Source: Klebsiella phage YMC16/01/N133_KPN_BP
DNA length: 58,387 nucleotides
Reading direction: 5' to 3' (one strand)
Sequence record: MF476925.1
In this document: positions 9,869 through 58,387 of the stretch, in pieces
Position numbering within the stretch: the first letter of the stretch is position 1
How the letters are laid out: each line of letters starts with the position of its first letter
Notes under the pieces: generated by a model
What the model was told of the DNA's origin: nothing
The model's database searches: none
Seen by the model: only the letters and a program-made list of their open reading frames with translations
Made by a program: the position numbers and the translations under genes

Positions 9869-9942
9869 CGCGGTATAGCATCAATTGGTAATGCAGCGGA
9901 CTCATAATCCGGGAGCTGAAGGTTCGAGTCCTTCTGCCGCCG
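9869..9942 (+). tRNA. tRNA-like element (anticodon CAT; Met/Ile2-like) or attP core; no encoded CCA; 1:72 and 27:43 mismatches
   Basis: Manual fold: acceptor 6/7 pairs. D-stem GCAT/ATGC with loop CAATTGGTA. Anticodon loop CTCATAA. T-arm GAAGG-TTCGAGT-CCTTC. The integrase stop and C-terminal codons overlap its 3' half. Confidence 0.4.
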
Positions 9943-10948
9943 CCTTCTCCACCACTGCCATCGGCATAGCCTTGTCGTGAAGCCTCTCCGGGCTCAGGTG
10001 GGTATAGCGCCTCAGCATATTCCAGTCGCGGTGTCCCGACACCAGCGCGACCTCCTGAATCTCGTAGCCCGCTTCGAACAGCCGGCAGATGCCCTCGTGG
10101 CGCAGGTCGTGCCAGCGGAGGTCCACCAGCCCCGCGCGCTCCACCGCCCGGCACCACGCAGCGCCGATGGACCCGGTCTTGTAAGGGAAGATCTCGCCGC
10201 GCTGGCGCACCTGACGTTTGATGATGTCGAAGGACCTGCCCAGCAGCGGCACGGTCTGGTCATTGCCCTTTTTCAGGGTGGGATGCTTACGGTCCCGGAT
10301 CACCACGGTGCGCTTCGCCTCATCGACGTCGCTCCAGCGTATCCGGCAGACCTCTGCCACCCGCATAGCTGTGTCAATGGAGAAGGCGATCAGCTCGTCC
10401 ATCGGGAGGGTGGACTGCATGTTGTCGAGGATCTGCTCTATCTCGTCATCGCTGACCCGGCGGGCGCGTTCGACAGACCTACCGGTCAGCCCATAGTTCC
10501 GCAGGGCGTGGCGGCCGCGCTTCCACTCGTCCCAGTCAGGGCGTACCTCCCAGAAGGTGTCGGCGTGGCGCAGGGCCATTGCGATGAAGACGAACTCCTG
10601 GTCCATCGTGCTGGGCGCCACGCCGCGGCCTTTGGTGTAGTCGAGCATCCACTTCGCGGTCAGCTGAGAGACGAGCACTCCGCTCAGCTTACGACGGAGG
10701 GTGCGCATCGTGGCGTGGTGGGTGCGCTGCAGAGGCTTAATCGGCAGGACCTCATCAATGTAGCGCTGGATCAGTACGCCGACGTCTGGGTCGTTCGCGT
10801 GGAACTTACCTTCCTCGATCGCGCCCTCCATTTCCCGGACCCATTTCTCCGCGAGGACTTTTTTGCTAAAGGTCTTCGACAGAGTTTTGTGTCCTTTGCG
10901 GCGGACCTGAGCCCTCCATCCTTCGCCGTGTTTGTAGATCGATGCCAT
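9902..10948 (-). CDS. int: Tyrosine integrase
   Basis: 348 aa. C-terminal catalytic region with R...HxLRH...Y pattern (RWHDLRHEG...LVSGHRDWNMLRRYTHL). The 3' end overlaps the tRNA-like sequence. Confidence 0.85.
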   Translation of the reverse strand: MASIYKHGEGWRAQVRRKGHKTLSKTFSKKVLAEKWVREMEGAIEEGKFHANDPDVGVLIQRYIDEVLPIKPLQRTHHATMRTLRRKLSGVLVSQLTAKWMLDYTKGRGVAPSTMDQEFVFIAMALRHADTFWEVRPDWDEWKRGRHALRNYGLTGRSVERARRVSDDEIEQILDNMQSTLPMDELIAFSIDTAMRVAEVCRIRWSDVDEAKRTVVIRDRKHPTLKKGNDQTVPLLGRSFDIIKRQVRQRGEIFPYKTGSIGAAWCRAVERAGLVDLRWHDLRHEGICRLFEAGYEIQEVALVSGHRDWNMLRRYTHLSPERLHDKAMPMAVVEKAAAEGLEPSAPGL

Positions 10949-46990: not shown

Positions 46991-47097
46991 CCCTGACCTC
47001 CCGGTATCACGCAGGTCCACACTGCCAGCAGGCCAAGCGCCAGAGCGCCGGCCATCCACGCCAGGGTGATCAGCATCTCGCGTTTCTGGTTCGGCAT
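46987..47097 (-). CDS. Unannotated 36-aa membrane peptide (MPNQKREMLITLAWMAGALALGLLAVWTCVIPGGQG)
   Basis: ATGA-coupled on both sides. One TM helix. Confidence 0.3.
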   Translation of the reverse strand: MPNQKREMLITLAWMAGALALGLLAVWTCVIPGGQG

Positions 47098-47291
47098 CAC
47101 AGGTCCTCCACCGGTGCGCTGTAACGCCATTTGCAGATGGCGCGCTCGGAACGCGGGCTGCTCTGTCCCCGCCGTTTGCAGTCAGGGCACTCAACGTAGT
47201 AACGGACGCCGCCGGCGCCCACCGTTTGCTTCACTTCCGCGTCGCCCCCGCAGGGGCAAACGAGTAATGGTTTGAGGTTGGCTGGCATCAT
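47097..47291 (-). CDS. Lar-family restriction-alleviation-like zinc-finger protein
   Basis: 64 aa. LKPLLVCPCGG...YYVECPDCKRRG resembles the Lar/Rac restriction alleviation proteins (CPFCGG...C..C). Confidence 0.4.
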   Translation of the reverse strand: MMPANLKPLLVCPCGGDAEVKQTVGAGGVRYYVECPDCKRRGQSSPRSERAICKWRYSAPVEDL

Positions 47292-48358
47292 CAGATCAGG
47301 TCCTCATCTTCGACGTCGCCAGTAAGTGACTTCGGCTCGTCCAGCTCTTCGCCGTTGACGTGGCTGATCTTCCAGCCCTTCAGCGCGTCTACCATCGACT
47401 GCACTTCGTCGTCGCTCATGTCGCGCAGCGCTTCACCGCCCAGTGACACGACAACGCCGTCAACCAGCGAGTCCAGCGCATCCACGGTCAGCAGCAGAGT
47501 AGCCTTCGCCAGCGCGATACCGGATTCGTCTTCCGTGTCGGCGCCGGCGTCGTCCTGCGCCATGTCGATCAGCGCGTCAGGCCAGGATACCGATTTGAAT
47601 GCCAGGTTTTCGTTGAGGATGAAGCGCGTGCCGCCGTGCAGGTGGTCGTCGTAGTAGCCCAGCTCCAGCGACACGACCTGGTAGTCTTCGCTCAGCAGCT
47701 CGCTCAGGGTCGAAGAGTCGAGATCGACGCTTTTCCCAGAGAGCACCTGGGACCCCTCCAGCTTGCCCTTCGCAGTGAACGCTTCGCCCACTGACAGCTG
47801 CGACGGGACAACCGTGCCGGCTACCCAGTCCGTGAACTGCGTGACGACGGGCTTCTTCGCCGTCAGCGGCTGCACGGGTAACGAGCCGAGCACACGACGG
47901 ACCGCGCCCAGCACCAGCTCCGCCTTCTTCGCGCTGGTGGTTTCAACGTAGACCCAGCTGCCGCTGATCAGCACGTTCACGCGGCTGTAGTCGATCAGCG
48001 CGTTTTCCATCATCCCGATGATGACGTCGTTCTTCAGGCCCTGCTTCTCGTCCTTCGTGGGGACGCGGGCATACTTTTCTTCCCAGTCCTTCAGGCGCTT
48101 ATCCAGCTCGCGCTTGACGATCTTGTTCGGGACAATGCGCAGCGCGGTTTCCAGCGTCAGCGCGTACTTGTTCTTCGCCAGCACGGTCAGCAGCTCATCG
48201 TTGCCGTCGATGGTGGGCACGAAGCCTGAGCGTTGCATCTGAAAGGTGGCCGGATCGCCGGCAGGCAGCACAGCCAGGCGCTCGGGTAGTATGTCGAACG
48301 GTACCTTGTCTGCCTTCAGCAGCCGGTACACCAGAAAACTCTTGAATCCTGCTTTCAT
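47291..48358 (-). CDS. Recombination-associated protein RdgC-like with acidic tail ...DVEDEDLI
   Basis: 355 aa. N-terminal FKSFLVYRL compared with E. coli RdgC FKNLMVYRL, and similar domain length. Confidence 0.6.
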   Translation of the reverse strand: MKAGFKSFLVYRLLKADKVPFDILPERLAVLPAGDPATFQMQRSGFVPTIDGNDELLTVLAKNKYALTLETALRIVPNKIVKRELDKRLKDWEEKYARVPTKDEKQGLKNDVIIGMMENALIDYSRVNVLISGSWVYVETTSAKKAELVLGAVRRVLGSLPVQPLTAKKPVVTQFTDWVAGTVVPSQLSVGEAFTAKGKLEGSQVLSGKSVDLDSSTLSELLSEDYQVVSLELGYYDDHLHGGTRFILNENLAFKSVSWPDALIDMAQDDAGADTEDESGIALAKATLLLTVDALDSLVDGVVVSLGGEALRDMSDDEVQSMVDALKGWKISHVNGEELDEPKSLTGDVEDEDLI

Positions 48359-48744
48359 GACAGGGTCTCCTGCAGTCGTGATTATTTTTCCCGTTGAGCC
48401 GTCTCAACTGACGCAAGAATACTCAACAAAAGGTATGTTTCCCAAACGGATTTACTCAGCCAAATTTTTGGAACGAGCAAGGTTTTTGAAAATTCAGGGA
48501 TTTTTGCCGAACTACTGGGTACCCTTCCAGCGGTTTTCAGCGTGGCGCCACGGTGCTGCAGTTTGCGAAATCTTTTGCCCAACCGAAAATTACACGCTTT
48601 TTGAGGGGGTCGGGCGGGGTCGGGTATGGGGCGCAGGCCGCGCACGCGCCGCGCTGCCGGGCGTTCTCTGGTGACTGTATGCGACGGTACAGGGTCGAGG
48701 GTTGCGCCGCTCCTGACGCGTTACAGCGCGTTTTACGGCGCAGG

Positions 48745-48790
48745 GGGTGGCGGGGTCCCCTTTCGGGGGTCCCCTTTCGGGGGTCGCCGG
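48745..48790. repeat. GC-rich tandem repeat GGGGTCCCCTTTC x2 with flanking G-tracts (part of the 48360-48860 non-coding region)
   Basis: GGGGTCCCCTTTCGGGGGTCCCCTTTCGGGGGTCGCC seen directly. Further G-tracts at 48590-48625. Confidence 0.6.
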
Positions 48791-48814
48791 GCGCTGGCGG
48801 GGCCGATCAACGGG

Positions 48815-48842
48815 CATAAAAAAGCCCGCTCGAAAGCGGGCA
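48815..48842 (-). terminator. Rho-independent terminator (minus strand) after the YjgR-like gene
   Basis: Minus strand reads GCCCGCTTTCGAGCGGGCTTTTTTATG. Confidence 0.65.
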
Positions 48843-48863
48843 AAGGGCGCACGGCGTTACAGA

Positions 48864-50360
48864 CTATCGGCGGCGGGGGCGCTGGTGGTTGGCGCGGCCC
48901 TGGGCAATGCCCGCGCATACCGCTAAGGATAGCACAAGGGGCAGCGGGTACAGGATGACGGCAGGCGGCAGCAGCGCGGAGATCTTGGACACGACCCCGG
49001 ACCACGGAGCGCACAGGACACCGCCCACGGCGACGGCGGCAAGGTATAGCCAGCCGTGGCGACGGTCTGCCTTGCTGCTGTCATCGCGTGGCAAGTTCTG
49101 AATGTTAGGGTAAGGAGATTGCCAGCGCCCACGGCTCACGCGCTCCGCGCCGGGCACGGTCTCCGGCTCACGCCATCCGGGGAACATCAAGGCGGCGCGT
49201 TCTGCGTCACTGAGTGGGGACAAGCGGCAGCGCGGCAGCGCCATTTTGACAACGCGCGCGGCGGTCAGCGTGCCATCGTCACCCATGAATGAGACCAGCG
49301 CGGACCCTTTCGGCAGCGTCCCGATCACATCGGCAGCTTTAAAGCCCACGGGCGCGGGCATCGACTGCGCGGCGGCGTACACTGCCCGGGCATCAGCAGG
49401 CGTCACCGACCGCAGCGCGTGCTGTATGCGCAGGTGTAGCTGCCGTGAGATGCTATCCGGCAGATCGCCGGGTGCCTGCGTGGCGAAGAATACGCCTACA
49501 CCTTTTGAGCGGATGAGGCGCACGGTCTGATCTATCATGCGCAGCAGCTCGGGCGGCGCGTCATCGAATATCAGGTGAGCCTCATCGAGGATCATTGCGA
49601 AAATCGGCTTGTCAGTGTCTCCGACTTCAGGCAGCAGCGCCGCCAGGCGGTCAAGTATCATCATGAGAACGGCGGCATAGAGCCGGGGCGCACGTATCAG
49701 GCGCACGCAGTCGAGCATTGAGACAACGCCGCGCCCGTCGGGGGTATGCGCCAGCAGGTCAGCAAGGGCGAACGTGGAGCGGTCAAAGAAGGCCGCGCCG
49801 CCTGCGCGTTCAAGGCCCAGGATCGCCCGGCCAATTGCTGCGACGCTCGACGGCGTGATCAGACCGTAGCGGCTGCCGATGGCGTCCCGGTTCTCCGCGC
49901 AATGGTTCACCACGGTGCGCAGGTCCCGCAACGTGTCGAGCGGCAGCCCGTCATCCTCCGCAACGGCGAAAGCGATCTCTATCACGCCCGCCTGCACATC
50001 GGTAGCGCCCAGCGCACGCGCCACCAGCGCGGGACCCATCGCCCGGATCGTGGTGGTCAGCGGTCCGCCGCGCTCCCGGAAAACGTCCAGCAGGCGCACG
50101 GGCGCGGCTTCAGGTCGCCAGCCGGGGAACTCCTTCGCGCCGTCGAGCGTCGACGCCGCCGCCATCCCTGAGAGGTCGCCTTTTACGTCTGTGAGGAATA
50201 CCGGGACGCCGATCCGCGCCAGCGACTCAGCAAGCCCGATTGCGCTCACGCTTTTACCGGTACCCGTTGCGCCCGCGATCAAGCCGTGGCGGTTGAGGTA
50301 CTTCGCAGGGACGAAAACGGGGCCGCAGTCGGCCCCGATCATAATCTGGTAGTTAGTCAT
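48864..50360 (-). CDS. YjgR/DUF853-family HerA-like P-loop ATPase with C-terminal TM segments
   Basis: 498 aa. NRHGLIAGATGTGKSV, GVPVFLTDVKGDLSG, RLIRSKGVGVFFATQAPGDLPD and LRIQHALRSVTP closely parallel E. coli YjgR. Confidence 0.65.
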   Translation of the reverse strand: MTNYQIMIGADCGPVFVPAKYLNRHGLIAGATGTGKSVSAIGLAESLARIGVPVFLTDVKGDLSGMAAASTLDGAKEFPGWRPEAAPVRLLDVFRERGGPLTTTIRAMGPALVARALGATDVQAGVIEIAFAVAEDDGLPLDTLRDLRTVVNHCAENRDAIGSRYGLITPSSVAAIGRAILGLERAGGAAFFDRSTFALADLLAHTPDGRGVVSMLDCVRLIRAPRLYAAVLMMILDRLAALLPEVGDTDKPIFAMILDEAHLIFDDAPPELLRMIDQTVRLIRSKGVGVFFATQAPGDLPDSISRQLHLRIQHALRSVTPADARAVYAAAQSMPAPVGFKAADVIGTLPKGSALVSFMGDDGTLTAARVVKMALPRCRLSPLSDAERAALMFPGWREPETVPGAERVSRGRWQSPYPNIQNLPRDDSSKADRRHGWLYLAAVAVGGVLCAPWSGVVSKISALLPPAVILYPLPLVLSLAVCAGIAQGRANHQRPRRR

Positions 50361-50996: not shown

Positions 50997-51676
50997 TAGG
51001 ACCAGCACGAGACTACATAGCGGCCTTCGCGGTTTACTTTCAGCTTCTCGCCTACTTTAATTTCAGGTTTACCGATGCTTATTTCCCCGGCCTCGATCTT
51101 CTGGTCTACCGCTGCGGCGTCATCACCATATGCTGCGTAATAGCTGACCGCGTCGGCGTGTTTCTCCTGGTAGTCGGGGGCGCTGTCTGCGTCCTATGCA
51201 CTTAATGTAATACCTTACAGTTGTATTGTCAACTATTGGTTGAATGCTTTTCGCGTTCTCCTGTGGTGCTGACCGTGGCGCGGGCGGCGCTGTCCTGGGG
51301 CCTGGTCTGCGTGCTGCCCTGCTGGCCAGGTCTCACGGTTTCACTGTGCGCGCCAGCCAGGCGGGGGAGAATCCCATCAACTCAATGAACGGTTGAGCGT
51401 AGGCCGCGCCAGCCTGGCGGCGTGATGCGCGGCGGCGGTCGCTTTCAGGTCGGAGGGTGACCGGGTCGCTCGGGGTCCCATCGGGGGTGGGGTGGGTCGC
51501 CGCGGGGGACGCGGAGCGCGGTTTTCGAGGAATTTCAAAAACGTCAATAGCCCCCTACGACCGAAATCGTTTTTGTTTCGTTCGAAAGTGAGGGCTTTAA
51601 GTTATTGAGTTAAAAGGTTTCGCGGTTACTGCGGGGTTAGGATTTATCCGATATGTGGATCCCCATATCGGGCCCC

Positions 51677-52087
51677 TTAGATGAGTTCATCGATATCGTC
51701 ATCCGCCGGGTCTTCCGGTTTCGCGGTCTCCGCGGTTTCTTCGTAGCCGATGTCGTCCGGGATCAGCTCCATGAAGTCGGCCACATTCAGGTGGTCCCAG
51801 ACGTCGTTGCGCTCGGCGCCATCCACCAGTTCGAAGATTTTCTTCAAGGCCGCAGTATGGACCGCGGGCGCAATCTCCACCACACTGTCGATCTGCGGGT
51901 TATGCTTCGGCCAGAAACCGTATGTACGGTGGCACTCGTGAAAGGCGGCATCGCCGGCCGGTAGGCTGTTCTTCCCGTTCCACGGCTGCGCCAGCGAGAC
52001 CTCGAAGGAGAACGTGCGCGGGGCGAACGCGCCGGGGTTGTCGTCGGACTCACGGTAGGCGGTGGCTGTTACGAGGTATTTAGGCAT
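51677..52087 (-). CDS. Hypothetical early protein with acidic tail ...PADDDIDELI
   Basis: 136 aa. Confidence 0.45.
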   Translation of the reverse strand: MPKYLVTATAYRESDDNPGAFAPRTFSFEVSLAQPWNGKNSLPAGDAAFHECHRTYGFWPKHNPQIDSVVEIAPAVHTAALKKIFELVDGAERNDVWDHLNVADFMELIPDDIGYEETAETAKPEDPADDDIDELI

Positions 52088-53178: not shown

Positions 53179-53380
53179 GTACAGGAATGTTTACATCCCG
53201 GAGACAATGCTCACGGCCTGCGAGAAGACCGCATGGCGTGGCGGCACCTACCGTGGGCTCGCGGCGCTGGCGAAGTCCAGAGGGACCGACGTCGATAACT
53301 GCAATGCTCAGCTTAAAGCGGCAAGGGACTATCAGAACGATCTGAGGGCTCGTGAAGAGTCAAACCGGGCCAAAAAGTAG
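53087..53380 (+). CDS. o-spanin (Rz1-like lipoprotein), overlapping the 3' end of Rz in another frame
   Basis: 97 aa. Signal peptide with lipobox LISGC (MRLHALIPVCLLSLISGCSTPP). Confidence 0.55.
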   Translation: MRLHALIPVCLLSLISGCSTPPTTQPTVITEYRNVYIPETMLTACEKTAWRGGTYRGLAALAKSRGTDVDNCNAQLKAARDYQNDLRAREESNRAKK

Positions 53381-53717
53381 GATGTAACCTAATAATCCGC
53401 CGATTACCTTTTATTTTGGGGCGTCGGCGGATTAGGTATCTCCCCGAACTGGTTCAATTTCATATAGATAGCCCTCAAAGTTACCTAATAACTCAATAAC
53501 CTAATATATGAACTACACATATGTAAATATTGTCGTCGTACATATGAACGGTGAGATCATGTGTCACACATATAAATACATATGCACATATAAGGGGTAG
53601 GAAAGATTGGGTAACTTCAAATTTTAGGTAAAAACGCTCGCAAGCATATGAAAAATAACATGAAAGTGCGCGTACCCATTCAGTAACATGACCTCTTTAT
53701 CAGGTAACAGGTAACAA
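53381..53717. other. AT-rich non-coding region with repeated CATATG/ACATATG motifs (candidate origin of replication or regulatory hub next to the primase)
   Basis: At least 5 CATATG-containing motifs between 53519 and 53650 (CACATATGTAAA, GTACATATGAAC, CACACATATAAATACATATGCACATATAA, GCATATGAAAAA). Confidence 0.4.
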
Positions 53718-53746
53718 CAAAAAACCCGCCGAAGCGGGTTTTGTTT
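53718..53746. terminator. Bidirectional Rho-independent terminator AAAAAACCCGCCGAAGCGGGTTTTGTTT between the spanins and the primase
   Basis: Hairpin flanked by an A-run and a T-run. Confidence 0.7.
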
Positions 53747-56585
53747 AAATCAGGTCGTCATTTTCCATATCATCGCCTTCACCTTCCTCCAGCGCTCGAT
53801 GTTTTTCCAGCGCCTTCTTCAGCATCTCCTTGCCCCTGAGACTGAGCTTTCCATCCTCCTGAAGGAGAGATACGTCCCTGGTATAGACCGACAGCTTCGT
53901 CAGGTTGCCATCAATTCTGACCACCGTATTCTGCGCGGCTCGGAATCCCTGCGGCACCAGAAACGAGGCTCCGCTCTTCGTATTGAGGCTTCTGTCGACC
54001 CCGTGGATCTGAAAAGCCTCCTTCAGATGAGACATGATGAGGATGTCGCTGGTGATGCACGGGTACCTGTCGTCATCGAGCAGGTCCTGGAGAATCGTCT
54101 CTGCTTCTGACCGGGCGTTGTTAGCCACTATCGTCCGGTAGCGCGTGCGCGGGGCACGTTCCTTCGGGCGATAATACTCGCTGAACTGGTATTTCTCGAA
54201 ATAGGCTTTGAACTGCCACGGGTGGTCCTTAATGTGCTCGTACAGCGTCTGGACATAGTGCACCCCTTCCTTCTCCCGGTTGGCCTCGCGCCACTCGGTC
54301 ACCGCGTCGTCCGTATGGAAGCGGGTGAACACCACCAGATAGCGGTCGTCGCTCTCGTCCAGCGGCAGGGCGTTCTCGTGGTTGGTCATCATGTAGAAGT
54401 TCGCGAGGTTTTCCTGCTGCTCGGCATCCTTGTTCATGGCGCGCACAGAGGCCGTGGAGTTCGAAATCAGTGGCTTCATCTTCTCCAGAACTGCGTAGGC
54501 TTCCAGGCCGCCGATTTTCACCTCTTCCAGACCAACGAAGCACCGGTTCGAAATCCAGCCGTTGTGCTTTTCCTTCAGCACGTCGTTGTTGATCTCGTTG
54601 CAGTTCTGTTTACCGAGCATACGGGTGATCAGCGTCTTCAGCGTGGACTTACCTTCGTTACGGGACCCCTTTACCAGCAGCGCATACGGCAGCTTGACGC
54701 CCGGGAATTTCACACAATGAGCGACGAAATCAGACACCAGAGCGCGCTCGCGGTCATCCGGGAACAGGTCCTTCATGAGTCGTTTATACAGCTTGACGCC
54801 CTCGTTACCCCGGTACGCGGTGCGCTCGATGATGGCAGGCCGGTAGAGGTTAAGCAGGCACTCTCCACCGACAATAGGCAACCTGTCATCCGGGTGCTGC
54901 GGGTCGTAGGTAGTGCGAATGGCGCGCGGCACAGGGTTATTGGACCCCAGAGCTGCCGACAGAGCCGGGATGCGCGGTGTCCCGTTCTCCGTCACCCCAT
55001 AGGTGTCGATCGCTTCCTTGAAGTAGCGGTTGTTGAACGCCTCTTTCCCCATAGGACGCATCTCATTGTCTGACAGGCAGTAGAATGCGTTCTCGCTGAC
55101 CACGAAAACCACGTCGTCCAGCCATTCAGGGCGGTTATCATCCCCGTTTCCGATGAGCCGGTTAACCTTCCGCTCAGTGACTTCCTTTCGAACGAAAGCC
55201 TTCGTCATCGGCGAGCCAAGCTCTTTGGCCTTTTCGATGATTTTCGGGATGAAGTTCTCCCGGCGCCACGCCTGCAGGAAGTCGGCTGGTGCGCCGGCGA
55301 TGGCATGGCATACCTTCTGCAGGTCGTCCACGTTCTCCGCGATGCGGATCAGGCGGAACACCTCGGTGCAGTATTCCTCCAGGGTCTTCGGCTTTTTGCG
55401 CTTCGGAGTGGTGTCGCCGATAAGGTCGTCTTCATCGTCGTCCTCCTCATCATCGCCAAAATCAGGCAGCAGGGCAGCGGCCATCTCTGTCTGCTCTTCC
55501 TCAATCTCGGCTTCGATCTCCGCCAGCGCCTCCAGCACGGCAGGCTGCTGGCGCATCAGGGCTTCCATCGCCTTGTACGACTCCAGCTCTACCGGCGAGC
55601 TGATATCATCCTTGTCGATGCCGTCATCCAGGTCGCCGAACAGCACCAGACGCCCGGTGTCAAAGGTGGTGTGCTGGCCGTGGGCCACGTCGGAGTGCGA
55701 GTGGTCAGAGTGGATAAAGGCGTCGTCGTAGATGCGGACTGACGCGGCGCCGGAGGCACCAAACGGGCGGTAACGTCCTTCCCCCACATACTCGTAATGG
55801 TCAGACAGGAACTGCTCGATGAAGTCTTCCGGGGTGTACGCGCGGTGGACGGCCGTGATAATAGGGGCTGTCGTTTTCTTGTCTTCCGGGTGCTGCCGGC
55901 TGCCGGTGATGCCTTTGGCACTGTCGACGCCATCCGGGCGAACAGGCCAGCTGTCAGGGTCGGTAATGTCGTACTTTTTGAACGCCTTTTTAGGGTCCAG
56001 GAACTTGCCATCGAACGTCTGGTGGAAGAACTCTCCATCAGAGCAGACGCTGGGCATAAACATCAGCTGCGCGGTCACGAATGACTCAGCGGCGACGGCC
56101 ATCATATTCTCGTCAACCAGCTCCGCGACGTAGCGGACCACCAGCTCGTACTCATCTTTGGTGACATCAGCGGCCAGCGGCACGATAACGCGGAAACGCG
56201 GCTTCTCGATGGTGTGCTTGCGGGTGGTGTGGACGTGATAGGCCAGGCCTTTGAGCCCCTCTATACCGCCGCGGTAGATAATCTCGTCCCAGACAGTGTC
56301 CGCATGGTCATCGATGTCTAGCGTAACGACCGAACGGCATTCCAGATTCACTTTGCGGCGCTTGCCGTCTTTGAACTGGCCGCCTACGAAATAGCCCTTA
56401 TTCTTGAGGTTGCGTTGCTCTTCAACCGACATATCGAGGTAGTCGGCGAGGGTAACGTCATCGCGAACTGGTTCTTCGAAACGAGAGACGAGTTCCTGCC
56501 ACGTCAGCTCTTCGTTTTTTACTACCGACAGGTTTTTCTTACCTGGCTTGCCGAAGGAGACCTTCAGCGTGCGGGTTTGACTCAT
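53745..56585 (-). CDS. Primase-helicase (P4 alpha / D5-like) with acidic tail ...EGDDMENDDLI
   Basis: 946 aa. N-terminal primase-polymerase-like region (VVTLDIDD). C-terminal P-loop (VKGSRNEGKSTL) as in D5/P4-type helicases. Confidence 0.65.
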   Translation of the reverse strand: MSQTRTLKVSFGKPGKKNLSVVKNEELTWQELVSRFEEPVRDDVTLADYLDMSVEEQRNLKNKGYFVGGQFKDGKRRKVNLECRSVVTLDIDDHADTVWDEIIYRGGIEGLKGLAYHVHTTRKHTIEKPRFRVIVPLAADVTKDEYELVVRYVAELVDENMMAVAAESFVTAQLMFMPSVCSDGEFFHQTFDGKFLDPKKAFKKYDITDPDSWPVRPDGVDSAKGITGSRQHPEDKKTTAPIITAVHRAYTPEDFIEQFLSDHYEYVGEGRYRPFGASGAASVRIYDDAFIHSDHSHSDVAHGQHTTFDTGRLVLFGDLDDGIDKDDISSPVELESYKAMEALMRQQPAVLEALAEIEAEIEEEQTEMAAALLPDFGDDEEDDDEDDLIGDTTPKRKKPKTLEEYCTEVFRLIRIAENVDDLQKVCHAIAGAPADFLQAWRRENFIPKIIEKAKELGSPMTKAFVRKEVTERKVNRLIGNGDDNRPEWLDDVVFVVSENAFYCLSDNEMRPMGKEAFNNRYFKEAIDTYGVTENGTPRIPALSAALGSNNPVPRAIRTTYDPQHPDDRLPIVGGECLLNLYRPAIIERTAYRGNEGVKLYKRLMKDLFPDDRERALVSDFVAHCVKFPGVKLPYALLVKGSRNEGKSTLKTLITRMLGKQNCNEINNDVLKEKHNGWISNRCFVGLEEVKIGGLEAYAVLEKMKPLISNSTASVRAMNKDAEQQENLANFYMMTNHENALPLDESDDRYLVVFTRFHTDDAVTEWREANREKEGVHYVQTLYEHIKDHPWQFKAYFEKYQFSEYYRPKERAPRTRYRTIVANNARSEAETILQDLLDDDRYPCITSDILIMSHLKEAFQIHGVDRSLNTKSGASFLVPQGFRAAQNTVVRIDGNLTKLSVYTRDVSLLQEDGKLSLRGKEMLKKALEKHRALEEGEGDDMENDDLI

Positions 56586-57333: not shown

Positions 57334-58387
57334 ATGTCCATTGAGAAGGCTATTGCCGACCAGACCGCCGCGATTGAAAAGAACACCGAAGCCCAAGAAA
57401 AGGCCACCGAAGTTCAGCTGCAGGTTTTAGCTGCACTGCAGGCCCTGGCCGCTGCTGGTGGTACCACTACCGTCACCTCTGAAAAGGGTGCAGGCAAAAC
57501 CCGCACTACCAAAAACACGGATAAATCCACTGATGCGGACCCGATCTACTGGCACATCCCGGGCACCGAAGAGTTCGGCTCCGTTGATACTGAAGCCGAG
57601 TGGAAAAAGCTGAAGAAGGCGAAGGCTAAGGCTGTCAAGATCCCAGAGTCGAAGTACCAGACCCTGGTTGAAGCGGCCAGCGGCACCGACGATGAAGGCG
57701 ATACCGGTGAGTTCAGCGATCGTATTCAGGCTCTGATCGATGAAGTTCCGGAAGAGCCTACCGCGGATGACATCACTGACCTGTTCAAAAAGTATCTGCC
57801 GAAAGACCTTGAAAAGGCAGAACGTGACGCCCGCGCTGAAATCATCAAGCCGATTCTGGCCGGCGTGAAAGCGCCGAAGGCTTCTGCCGTGAAGGACGAC
57901 GACCGCCGCGACGTCATGGGCCGCTGCTGGTGGTACCACTACCGTCACCTCTGAAAAGGGTGCAGGCAAAACCCGCACTACCAAAAACACGGATAAATCC
58001 ACTGATGCGGACCCGATCTACTGGCACATCCCGGGCACCGAAGAGTTCGGCTCCGTTGATACTGAAGCCGAGTGGAAAAAGCTGAAGAAGGCGAAGGCTA
58101 AGGCTGTCAAGATCCCAGAGTCGAAGTACCAGACCCTGGTTGAAGCGGCCAGCGGCACCGACGATGAAGGCGATACCGGTGAGTTCAGCGATCGTATTCA
58201 GGCTCTGATCGATGAAGTTCCGGAAGAGCCTACCGCGGATGACATCACTGACCTGTTCAAAAAGTATCTGCCGAAAGACCTTGAAAAGGCAGAACGTGAC
58301 GCCCGCGCTGAAATCATCAAGCCGATTCTGGCCGGCGTGAAAGCGCCGAAGGCTTCTGCCGTGAAGGACGACGACCGCCGCGACGTC
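57334..58387 (+). CDS. Early acidic repeat protein (5' part), continues into 1..375; as assembled it is interrupted by a 470-bp out-of-frame tandem duplication
   Basis: ATG at 57334 with AGGAGA-like Shine-Dalgarno. Frame breaks at 57907 (…RRDVMGRCWWYHYRHL-stop) where the sequence jumps back to a copy of 57447 onward. Confidence 0.45.
57448..58387 (+). repeat. Exact 470-bp tandem duplication (57448-57917 = 57918-58387), most likely an assembly artefact of a repeat-containing gene at a circular junction
   Basis: Direct comparison of the two segments. 470 is not a multiple of 3. Confidence 0.6.

Follow-up and report, generated by a model that had tools for sequence, protein, structure and literature searches.

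The gap between the HerA-like gene and rdgC

The sequence analyzed here is the genome of Klebsiella phage YMC16/01/N133_KPN_BP (record MF476925.1; family Casjensviridae), a stretch of 58,387 nucleotides that we call the window, and our literature search found this phage only in its taxonomy listing. From the stop codon of a HerA_C/YjgR-like ATPase gene (48864-50360; Pfam PF05872, E 2.8e-126) to the start of rdgC (47291-48358; Pfam PF04381, E 2e-43) there is a gap of 505 nt (48359-48863), and both of the bordering genes are on the minus strand. The product of the HerA_C/YjgR-like gene and the protein of Klebsiella phage YMC16/01/N133_KPN_BP share 100% identity. This gene closes the leftward transcription unit upstream of the gap, and rdgC opens the leftward unit downstream of it. 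The original prediction of about 500 bp lacking a credible ORF between these genes was confirmed. Its description of the gap as a GC-rich block holds for the HerA-proximal half (GC 0.62-0.74, about 48590-48863) but not for the rdgC-proximal half (GC 0.40-0.51, 48360-48590).

The mechanical ORFs within the gap are 75-142 aa long, and none of them has a Pfam match or GC3 codon bias or stays open in the relatives in a six-frame comparison (the longest frame, for example, is broken in lineage L014). We considered a hidden gene and rejected it, as the similarity to relatives involves several frames and both strands simultaneously and Pfam matches are absent. We also rejected the idea that the gap keeps remains of HNH, Acb2, or other genes present here in relatives, because a tblastn search of the gap was empty.

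A gene-free gap of 450-630 nt follows the HerA gene in all ten related lineages that we recovered (named for this gap are L001, L002, L003, L004, L010, L014, L015, L016, and L019), which supports a real non-coding element rather than a missed gene. Non-conservation in relatives had been put forward as the finding that would speak against such an element; the gap is conserved, and this objection therefore falls. Between the window and L014, gap identity is 0.91-0.97 outside the repeat zone and block B1 (0.80 in B1; both described below), compared to 0.75 at the 4-fold sites of HerA, which hints that the sequence is more constrained, or has been exchanged more recently, than would be needed for a pure spacer. 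L002, L003, and L015 carry an HNH endonuclease gene (phrog_374) between block B2 and rdgC, accompanied in L002 and L003 by an Acb2/Tad1-like gene. In one relative of 97% identity, the sequence upstream of the promoter is unrelated; a mosaic break at the promoter is seen in L012. The homologous junction in L002, L003, and L015 thus carries an insertion of the kind seen at landing sites of HNH homing endonucleases, whereas the window itself has no endonuclease gene or detectable remnant in the gap.

Searches of the gap DNA against phage, E. coli genome, and plasmid collections (blastn in a distant mode) returned no match, the phage collection apparently being one that lacks the record of this phage. 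Single-protein scans of IMG/VR with RdgC or HerA as the query gave no match, an exact look-up of the RdgC protein matched no record, and scans with alignments of IMG/VR, GTDB genomes, and JGI metagenomes gave only RdgC relatives of 31-35% identity. In the two of these that were inspected, L008 and L009, there is no HerA-length ORF upstream, and this set of relatives was put aside.

Terminator, C-rich spacer and putative promoter region

The terminator scan and conservation both mark a hairpin on the minus strand at 48818-48841 (T1; GCCCGCTTTCGAGCGGGC), which begins 22 nt past the HerA stop codon and reads GCCCGC-TTTCGA-GCGGGC followed by TTTTTT. T1 is kept in ten lineages with a compensatory change of the outer stem pair from G-C to A-T, while the inner stem extensions vary across relatives, and its structure conservation index of 0.40-0.43 is the only non-zero value in the gap. 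With a GC hairpin and a U-tract past the stop codon and a stem that is kept, T1 qualifies as an intrinsic (Rho-independent) terminator. In L004, the scan called a second intrinsic terminator at the position of the 14-nt repeat described below; in L015, a homologous hairpin with a T-run was found at this position by alignment, and the terminator scan did not call it.

Next to T1, the transcribed strand of the 48600-48812 region (minus strand) has the base composition of a C-rich, comparatively G-poor spacer. The best 78-nt spacer window (48604-48681) contains 38 C and 21 G (27% G), and the excess of C over G reaches at least the 99th percentile of the locus in every one of the ten lineages. The spacer folds no better than shuffled sequence. 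Its identity to distant relatives (0.41-0.56) is near the baseline of 4-fold sites (0.44-0.47), implying that composition is kept and sequence is not. Of the nine relatives tested, seven have 4-6 copies of the motif ACCCC in the gap, as does the window, where 0.2-0.8 would be expected; the L014 gap has two copies and the L019 gap has one.

Two tandem repeats were detected by TRF in the spacer, a 10-nt repeat of GGGGTCGGGC (1.9 copies, 48606-48624) and a 14-nt repeat of GGGGTCCCCTTTCG on the plus strand (2.4 copies, 48752-48785, score 68; GACCCCCGAAAGGG units on the minus strand). The latter bears out the tandem repeat that had been noticed near 48752-48778; it has the top TRF score among the short repeats of the genome, and zero occurrences are expected by chance. 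It is not conserved even in relatives of 89-93% identity: at this position, a single diverged unit is found in L001, two units in L014, and three units of a different sequence in L016 and L017. We therefore read it as a slippage-prone, variable-number repeat. GGGGTC is not enriched genome-wide, while five of its 20 same-strand copies fall in the gap, where 0.15 would be expected. The G-tract repeats are the C-rich spacer read from the other strand, and their exact sequence and copy number appear not to be under selection.

The AT-rich half contains a candidate promoter for rdgC on the minus strand (48416-48445), located by alignment position, with a sigma-70-like −35 hexamer TTGGGA (48445-48440), an 18-nt spacer, and a −10 hexamer TATTCT (48421-48416). 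It matches the consensus at 8/12 positions, which is below the 9/12 cut-off of the promoter scanning tool. TTGC[TCA]A-17-TATTCT occupies shared alignment columns in L001, L016, L017, L014, L010, and L004, six lineages in which rdgC is adjacent, and L011 has an offset pair, TTTGCA-18-TATTCT, one column upstream. Across the window and the relatives, the hexamers match at 8-9/12 positions and the −10 element has its A2 and T6, and GTTGAGTATTCT is invariant at the promoter. A 10-nt deletion in the window replaces the −35 hexamer common to the relatives. We infer the rdgC promoter, its transcription start, and the terminator efficiencies from these sequence features.

At about +2 to +17 of the rdgC mRNA that would start here, the hairpin GUUGAG-ACGG-CUCAAC (48393-48408, minus strand) adopts the same fold in each lineage at −5.7 to −8.0 kcal/mol. 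MAFFT put the two arms of this hairpin out of register, and so we used individual folds of each lineage instead. In the window the stem has GAG/CUC, which becomes GAA/UUC in L010, and both L004 and L011 have a U.G pair in it; the hairpin is kept through these compensatory changes. The inverted repeat of the original prediction is hence present, although at 48393-48408 and not at 48403-48418; on the plus strand it reads GTTGAG-CCGT-CTCAAC, ACGG being the loop of the minus strand. The exact palindrome occurs only once in the genome, and matches with up to two mismatches are found at the chance rate, so that its significance rests on conservation in relatives and not on statistics within this genome. 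A Shine-Dalgarno sequence, AGGAG (48367-48371, minus strand), can be read directly 8 nt before the rdgC ATG (48358-48356).

Two blocks on the minus strand exceed the neutral identity baseline. Block B1, CCCCCTCAAAAAGCG-N5-ATTTTCGGTTGGGCAAAAGATTTC (48560-48612; alignment A4 and nhmmer), occurs in one copy per locus (nhmmer E 1e-11 to 1e-20) with an identity to distant relatives of 0.57-0.68 against the baseline of 0.44-0.47, and L010 and L019 lack it or have it in degenerate form. A stretch near 51.55 kb, in the second gene-poor region, looks like B1 by eye, but the likeness is not significant by nhmmer and we rejected it as a paralogue. Block B2, AATTTTCAAAAACCTTGCTCGTTCCAAAAATTT (48462-48494), has a near-palindromic core, CCAAAAATTTGG (also given as GTTCCAAAA). 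Its GTTCC-AAA is invariant in all 11 sequences of alignment A4, with one further A at 90% or more; B2 is single-copy in the genome and is also found in the more distant clade L019-L021 (E 6e-7). An exact-pattern scan of IMG/VR for B2 gave one chance match, inside a 773-aa ORF. Both blocks persist across phages whose flanking proteins are 54-69% (rdgC) and 62-67% (HerA) identical. B2 lies a steady ~115-140 nt away from the next start codon and is overlapped by a weak promoter-like pair, TTTTCA-17-AAAAAT; it may act as an upstream regulatory site or as an additional, upstream promoter. By eye, neither block gave a convincing fit to the sites of IHF, Fis, LexA, DnaA, sigma-54, sigma-E, or sigma-32, nor, in an equally informal comparison, to lambda boxA/boxB or CII sites.

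Alternative readings of the gap

A structured non-coding RNA, a recombination hotspot, and an origin or iteron had all been suggested for this gap. A gene for a non-coding RNA, whether structured or an unstructured or antisense small RNA, would suit a gap that is conserved and non-coding, but we consider it improbable. Rfam gave chance-level matches only at E up to 10 and none at the gathering threshold, no tRNA or tmRNA was found in the gap, and the folding energies compared to shuffled sequence (z = 0.05, −0.26, and −0.51) carry no folding signal, with z near 0 on both strands. The RNAalifold consensus of the gap is −2.3 kcal/mol with an unfavourable covariation term of +0.9, and, apart from T1, both strands have a structure conservation index of about 0; consensus structure and covariation are both absent, and a structured RNA is not supported. 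There are two candidate layouts from which an RNA could come, a rightward (plus-strand) transcript from the promoter-like ATGACA-17-GATTAT (48357-48385), and a C-rich RNA between two terminators as L004 and L015 are arranged. The plus-strand site matches at 9/12 and points into the gap, but it is confined to the clade of the window. L004 has its tandem terminators ~120 nt apart with a promoter-like TTGCCC-18-TACACT between them and a dyad beside B1 that scores as an antisense-strand terminator, and the second hairpin of L015 is homologous by alignment, though uncalled by the scan. However, the second terminator is degenerate and has no U-run in the window clade, and conservation among close relatives is lowest in the stretch between the terminators. 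Still more doubtful, in our judgment, is that the G-tracts are themselves the functional unit, as a G4/i-motif switch or a recombination hotspot. Multiple tracts capable of forming G-quadruplexes had been predicted, and under the rule of at least four G3+ tracts separated by 1-7-nt loops (G3+N1-7), the gap has one canonical motif, GGGGGTCGGGCGGGGTCGGGTATGGGG (48605-48631, plus strand), found by a regex scan. It has loops of 1-3 nt, takes in the 10-nt repeat (48606-48624), and is on the strand that serves the leftward operons as template, whereas the non-conserved tandem-repeat stretch at 48745-48805 fails the rule because its loops are 9 nt. The G-richness of the template strand is conserved in all lineages, and the only other G4 motif of the genome (51455-51508) also sits at a gene-poor, C-rich leftward junction; yet two motifs against 2.3 expected is no enrichment, and of the eight relatives scanned, four keep the motif (L001, L016, L014, and L002) and four do not have it (L010, L004, L015, and L003). 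Motifs in bacterial regulatory regions resemble the one here in that it is canonical, on the template strand, and between operons, but they are not matched by its absence in four of the eight lineages scanned, its lack of enrichment, or the failing tract. As for recombination, the junction is mosaic in relatives and has received insertions, which agrees loosely with a hotspot, but none of the 33 genomic copies of the Chi octamer GCTGGTGG is in 48359-48863, the nearest (48881-48888) being inside HerA.

A lytic replication origin, in which GACCCC/GGGGTC would be short iterons beside an AT-rich unwinding region and B1/B2 would be sites for an initiator or host factor, also seems improbable to us. 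In its favor, five GACCCC in the same orientation fall within 180 nt (0.15 expected) and adjoin the AT-rich half (GC 0.40-0.51, 48360-48590), ACCCC is enriched in the gaps of most relatives, B1 and B2 are unique conserved sites, and the phage encodes a D5/DUF5906-type primase-helicase (53745-56585), relatives of which use short iterons in SaPI-type elements. This resembles the iteron-type origins of phages, plasmids, and SaPIs, with short repeats in one orientation by an AT-rich stretch. Unlike in those origins, the repeats vary among close relatives and do not lie beside the initiator gene, DnaA boxes are missing, and the conserved elements, B1 and B2, are unrepeated. GACCCC occurs five times in the window and in L016, twice in L001, L014, L015, and L002, once in L004 and L003, and not at all in L010, with differing spacing. 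Neither the number nor the spacing is kept, nor is the repeat sequence among relatives of 81-93% identity, and conserved iterons thus appear to be absent from the gap. No DnaA box (TTATCCACA, up to one mismatch) was found in the gap, which is 4.9 kb away from the primase-helicase gene. Immediately 3' of that gene, an AT-rich region of 400 nt (53345-53745) with many direct and inverted repeats would be the better origin-like candidate, and the fixed distance of B2 to the start codon is that of a promoter element. The origin or iteron suggested for the gap is thus not supported. B1 and B2, as single-copy conserved elements, would be compatible with an origin or some other unique cis-site as well, and with the C-rich repeat spacer they might form an undescribed, unique cis-site of Seodaemunguvirus-like phages that is more than a plain promoter region. 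Such a site could be a transcription-coupled lytic origin, or a dedicated insulator/anti-termination point that is bound by a phage-encoded factor and gates the rdgC-side operon; we regard this as unlikely.

A probable junction of two leftward transcription units

We favor, with fair though not full confidence, the reading of the gap as a non-coding junction between two leftward transcription units, made of a terminator, a C-rich spacer, and a promoter region, in a temperate-looking phage of the Casjensviridae. The gap would then be an element of an ordinary type, neither an RNA gene nor a clear replication origin. Transcripts of the primase-to-HerA unit would end at the conserved T1. The ~210-nt spacer that follows, with a C-rich RNA strand, a G-rich template strand, and no stable fold, is partly built of what look like slippage-prone 10-14-nt GACCCC-N units and may act as a fail-safe barrier to read-through, possibly by Rho loading on C-rich untranslated RNA, by the G-rich template strand, or by both. 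In L004 and L015, a second intrinsic terminator (by alignment in L015) would take the place of such spacer repeats. The AT-rich promoter region would then restart transcription for rdgC and the genes beyond it, from a putative sigma-70-like promoter that is conserved in position and has a moderate match to the consensus. B1 and B2 are putative binding sites for regulators, with B2 alternatively serving as an extra upstream promoter or a UP-like element, and the 5' hairpin of the mRNA probably stabilizes the message or acts as an operator. In relatives, HNH homing-endonuclease and Acb2-like genes are inserted at the same junction.

Known terminator-promoter junctions between operons of temperate phages and bacteria share with this gap a GC hairpin and U-tract directly past the last stop codon, an AT-rich −35/−10 region, a 5'-UTR hairpin and a Shine-Dalgarno sequence before the next gene, and conservation in short blocks. 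This junction differs from them in the ~210 nt of compositionally constrained C-rich spacer that intervenes and in the two strongly conserved single-copy blocks, B1 and B2, which have no recognisable factor. For the spacer, the closest comparison is with Rho-dependent terminators and their rut sites, such as lambda tR1, where RNA past the coding region is likewise C-rich, untranslated, and predicted to have no stable fold. Here, the excess of C over G is conserved across lineages and the sequence is not. Classical rut sites are more G-poor than this spacer, whose best window, at 27% G, is not strongly G-poor, and the spacer sits after an intrinsic terminator that looks efficient.

For the eye-catching repeats, which are evolutionarily unstable, the labels of origin, non-coding RNA, and G-quadruplex are unsupported. 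The modest point that remains is that B1 and B2 are conserved, short, and single-copy, and match the site of no known factor. For this group of phages, the gap would mark the end of one early or middle transcription unit and the start of the next, and it shows an insertion point for accessory and anti-defence cargo (the HNH endonuclease and Acb2-like genes), which may be of use in annotating and engineering Klebsiella phages.

Gene content around the HerA-rdgC gap and its relatives

The gap (48359-48863, 505 nt) between the HerA_C/YjgR-like gene (48864-50360, minus strand) and rdgC (47291-48358, minus strand), both identified by Pfam matches, works like an ordinary terminator-to-promoter junction. 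The phage belongs to the Casjensviridae, genus Seodaemunguvirus. In its first ~38.3 kb, replication and virion genes (exonuclease, DNA polymerase, large terminase, portal) occupy the + strand. The minus-strand, leftward block runs from 57185 to 38302; a Cro/YdaS-like HTH protein is encoded at its start, along with a DUF5906 primase-helicase. Since transcription proceeds in the order HerA, gap, rdgC, the gap was read on the minus strand. The original prediction that it is non-coding was upheld: its mechanically called ORFs gave no match in a Pfam scan and lack the GC3 excess of real genes. A hidden gene was also ruled out because several frames and both strands match simultaneously in translated comparisons and no reading frame stays open across relatives. 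The gap contains no detectable remnant of any gene that sits at this place in relatives.

Searches of annotated phage, E. coli and plasmid collections found no sequence similar to the gap. IMG/VR, GTDB and JGI returned only RdgC relatives of 31-35% identity, and the two such loci inspected have no HerA-sized ORF upstream. Usable relatives came from protein searches of Logan, ENA and NCBI assemblies, from which the contigs were fetched. Their HerA identity to the window is 89% (L016/L017), 81% (L014), 67% (L015), 66% (L002), 65% (L004) and 62% (L010), and 63% over 78% of the protein in a distant clade (L019-L021); L001 (93%) and L003 (60%) are related by rdgC identity, and L011 and L012 are partial loci. 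A gene-free gap of 450-630 nt follows HerA in all loci containing HerA.

The flanking genes have features of their own. The HerA_C match stops at residue 392 of 498, and the C-terminal ~100 aa (48864-49160) contain two stretches, LYLAAVAVGGVLCAPW and LLPPAVILYPLPLVLSLAVCAGIA, that are hydrophobic by eye; judged in this way, the tail may be a membrane anchor. HerA relatives in the close clade are of similar length (481-514 aa). RdgC has 355 aa in the window, and its closest relatives have 430-450 aa with FtsK_gamma (PF09397) near the C-terminus; this domain is cleanly lost in frame with the acidic tail ...EDEDLI retained, a short form common to the proteins P0001, P0003 and P0008. Directly after rdgC, a 64-aa ORF (47097-47291) gave a Lar-like restriction-alleviation match (phrog_599, E 8e-6), and L012 likewise has a Lar_restr_allev gene nearby. 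Elsewhere, a full tRNA-Met gene (9869-9944, + strand) overlaps the 3' end of an integrase gene (9902-10948, minus strand); the overlap is probably the attP region, and the arrangement indicates a temperate lifestyle. At the end of the record (57447-58387), a 472-nt unit, whose length is no multiple of 3, stands twice in tandem with 100% identity; part of a third copy is found at ~83-294, and bases 1-68 recur at 292-359. These end repeats look like an assembly or circularisation artefact, and the true genome is probably ~0.7 kb shorter than the record.

Terminator, spacer, conserved blocks and predicted promoter

The terminator scan placed T1 at 48841-48818 (minus strand), 22 nt past the HerA stop codon. 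T1 has the sequence of an intrinsic terminator, and sequence and conservation together show it to end the HerA unit. Every lineage has it, with a compensatory switch from G-C to A-T in the outer pair, and nowhere else in the gap does the structure conservation index differ from zero. The G-tract tandem repeat noticed originally is real (GGGGTCCCCTTTCG, 14 nt, x2.4, 48752-48785), and a 10-nt repeat, GGGGTCGGGC, occurs x1.9 at 48606-48624. The repeat zone is the least conserved stretch among close relatives, with one diverged unit in L001, two in L014 and three of different sequence in L016/L017, so that on the transcribed strand the repeat amounts to an array of GACCCC-N8 units whose number varies. 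At its position, the scan called a second intrinsic terminator in L004, and the alignment shows a homologous hairpin and T-run in L015, for which the scan made no call.

The gap had been described as GC-rich, which applies to the HerA-side half (0.62-0.74 GC) and not to the rdgC-side half (0.40-0.51). On the transcribed strand, C-richness extends across the entire HerA-side half, and in 10/10 lineages the C-minus-G excess of the best 78-nt window reaches or exceeds the 99th percentile of its own locus. The gap of the window and those of seven of the nine tested relatives contain 4-6 copies of ACCCC each, versus 0.2-0.8 expected; the exceptions are L014 (two) and L019 (one). Spacer identity to distant relatives is 0.41-0.56, near the neutral baseline of HerA 4-fold sites (0.44-0.47): composition is conserved and sequence is not. 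A second gene-poor leftward junction (51205-51677) has a strong sigma-70-like promoter (TTGACA-17-TACATT, 51232-51204, minus strand) and, at 51453-51530, the segment where C exceeds G most strongly in the early region. This layout may be a repeated one at operon junctions.

Two blocks rise above the neutral baseline, B1 (48612-48560, identity 0.57-0.68) and B2 (48494-48462, identity 0.56-0.75), each present once in the genome and once per locus. The B2 core GTTCC-AAA is invariant in 11/11 aligned sequences, with one more A conserved in at least 90%, and the distant clade still has a recognisable B2 (E 6e-7); its one match in IMG/VR is a chance match inside an ORF. B2 is near-palindromic around CCAAAWWTTTGG, carries a weak promoter-like pair and lies ~45-55 nt upstream of the -35 hexamer, with B1 ~190 nt upstream. 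We take both to be putative regulator or upstream-promoter elements. In two lineages the B2 core is doubled ~25-30 nt apart, as CGTTCCAAAATTTT ... AGTTCCCAAAAATTA in L010 (4810-4870) and CGTTCCAAAATC ... AGTTCCGATTCCCAAAAATCC in L019 (5832-5895), which hints at a repeated binding site.

Six lineages in which rdgC directly follows share a sigma-70-like pair, TTGC[TCA]A-17-TATTCT, in identical alignment columns, with GTTGAGTATTCT invariant at the promoter; L011 has an offset pair, TTTGCA-18-TATTCT. In the window a 10-nt deletion removes the shared -35 hexamer and leaves TTGGGA-18-TATTCT, with the predicted -10 at 48421-48416 (minus strand). The predicted rdgC promoter is conserved in position and only moderate in its match to consensus. 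The inverted repeat pointed out in the original prediction exists, ten bases to the left of where it had been placed (48393-48408), immediately after the inferred start site and before the Shine-Dalgarno AGGAG (48371-48367, minus strand). Its hairpin is retained in the 5'-UTR of each lineage with differing loops. In the stem, the window pairs GAG/CUC and L010 pairs GAA/UUC; L004 and L011 have a U.G pair, which is more in keeping with an RNA hairpin than with an operator in DNA.

Alternative identities of the gap

The gap is not the structured RNA that had been proposed as a possibility: the Rfam search found no family and the gap does not belong to an Rfam-type ncRNA class, folding z-scores were 0.05, -0.26 and -0.51, the covariation term counted against a consensus fold of -2.3 kcal/mol, and outside T1 the structure conservation index is ~0 on both strands. 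An origin or iteron, likewise proposed, is unlikely, because the repeats are unstable among close relatives, DnaA boxes are absent from the gap and there is another region in which an origin would more conventionally lie; tested as an iteron origin, the gap fell outside that class. That region is a 400-nt AT-rich, gene-free region (53345-53745) immediately 3' of the primase-helicase gene, whose terminator lies at 53742-53721. It is packed with direct and inverted repeats, including TAACCTAATA x3, several ACATATG-type repeats and an 11-nt perfect inverted repeat, and is more plausible as an origin or operator region than the gap.

The G-tracts do provide one canonical G-quadruplex motif (48605-48631, + strand), and loops of 9 nt would be required in the second G-rich stretch. 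The genome-wide number of canonical motifs, two, matches the expected 2.3, the other motif being at 51455-51508 (+ strand) in the junction at 51205-51677. A G-quadruplex element is unlikely because, of eight lineages scanned, four lack the gap motif. The proposed recombination hotspot holds only in the form of insertion and exchange at this junction in relatives. L002, L003 and L015 carry a gene for a 234-243-aa HNH endonuclease (phrog_374, E 1e-37 to 3e-30) between B2 and rdgC, followed in L002 and L003 by an Acb2/Tad1-hairpin gene, which is anti-CBASS/Thoeris sponge-like (inserted genes at L002 2498-3496, L003 1842-2834 and L015 6099-6830). In L012, whose rdgC is 97% identical, the sequence becomes unrelated immediately upstream of the -35 hexamer. 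In L010 an HNH_3/NUMOD4 gene stands immediately after rdgC. The gap is no Chi hotspot, as none of the genomic copies of the E. coli-type Chi octamer GCTGGTGG, all of which were checked, lies within it. The genome has 33 (21 on +, 12 on -; for example 899-906, 48881-48888 and 57926-57933) versus 2.8 +/- 1.8 expected from dinucleotide shuffles, and this >10-fold excess suggests selection for protection from RecBCD.

Proposed role of the junction

As a terminator-to-promoter junction, the gap would divide two leftward transcription units. The C-rich, unstructured and untranslated spacer may serve as a fail-safe against read-through, because its composition is conserved, it directly follows T1 and two relatives have a second terminator there. 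Rho entry at a rut-like site could have this effect, and so could a template strand rich in G; we infer the barrier from composition, with a G content of 27%, above that of textbook rut sites. Transcription would restart from the moderate promoter in the AT-rich half. It is improbable that B1, B2 and the spacer together amount to a cis-acting site in its own right, for instance an origin or a dedicated point of control. What remains new in this junction is the two conserved single-copy blocks together with a compositionally constrained spacer.
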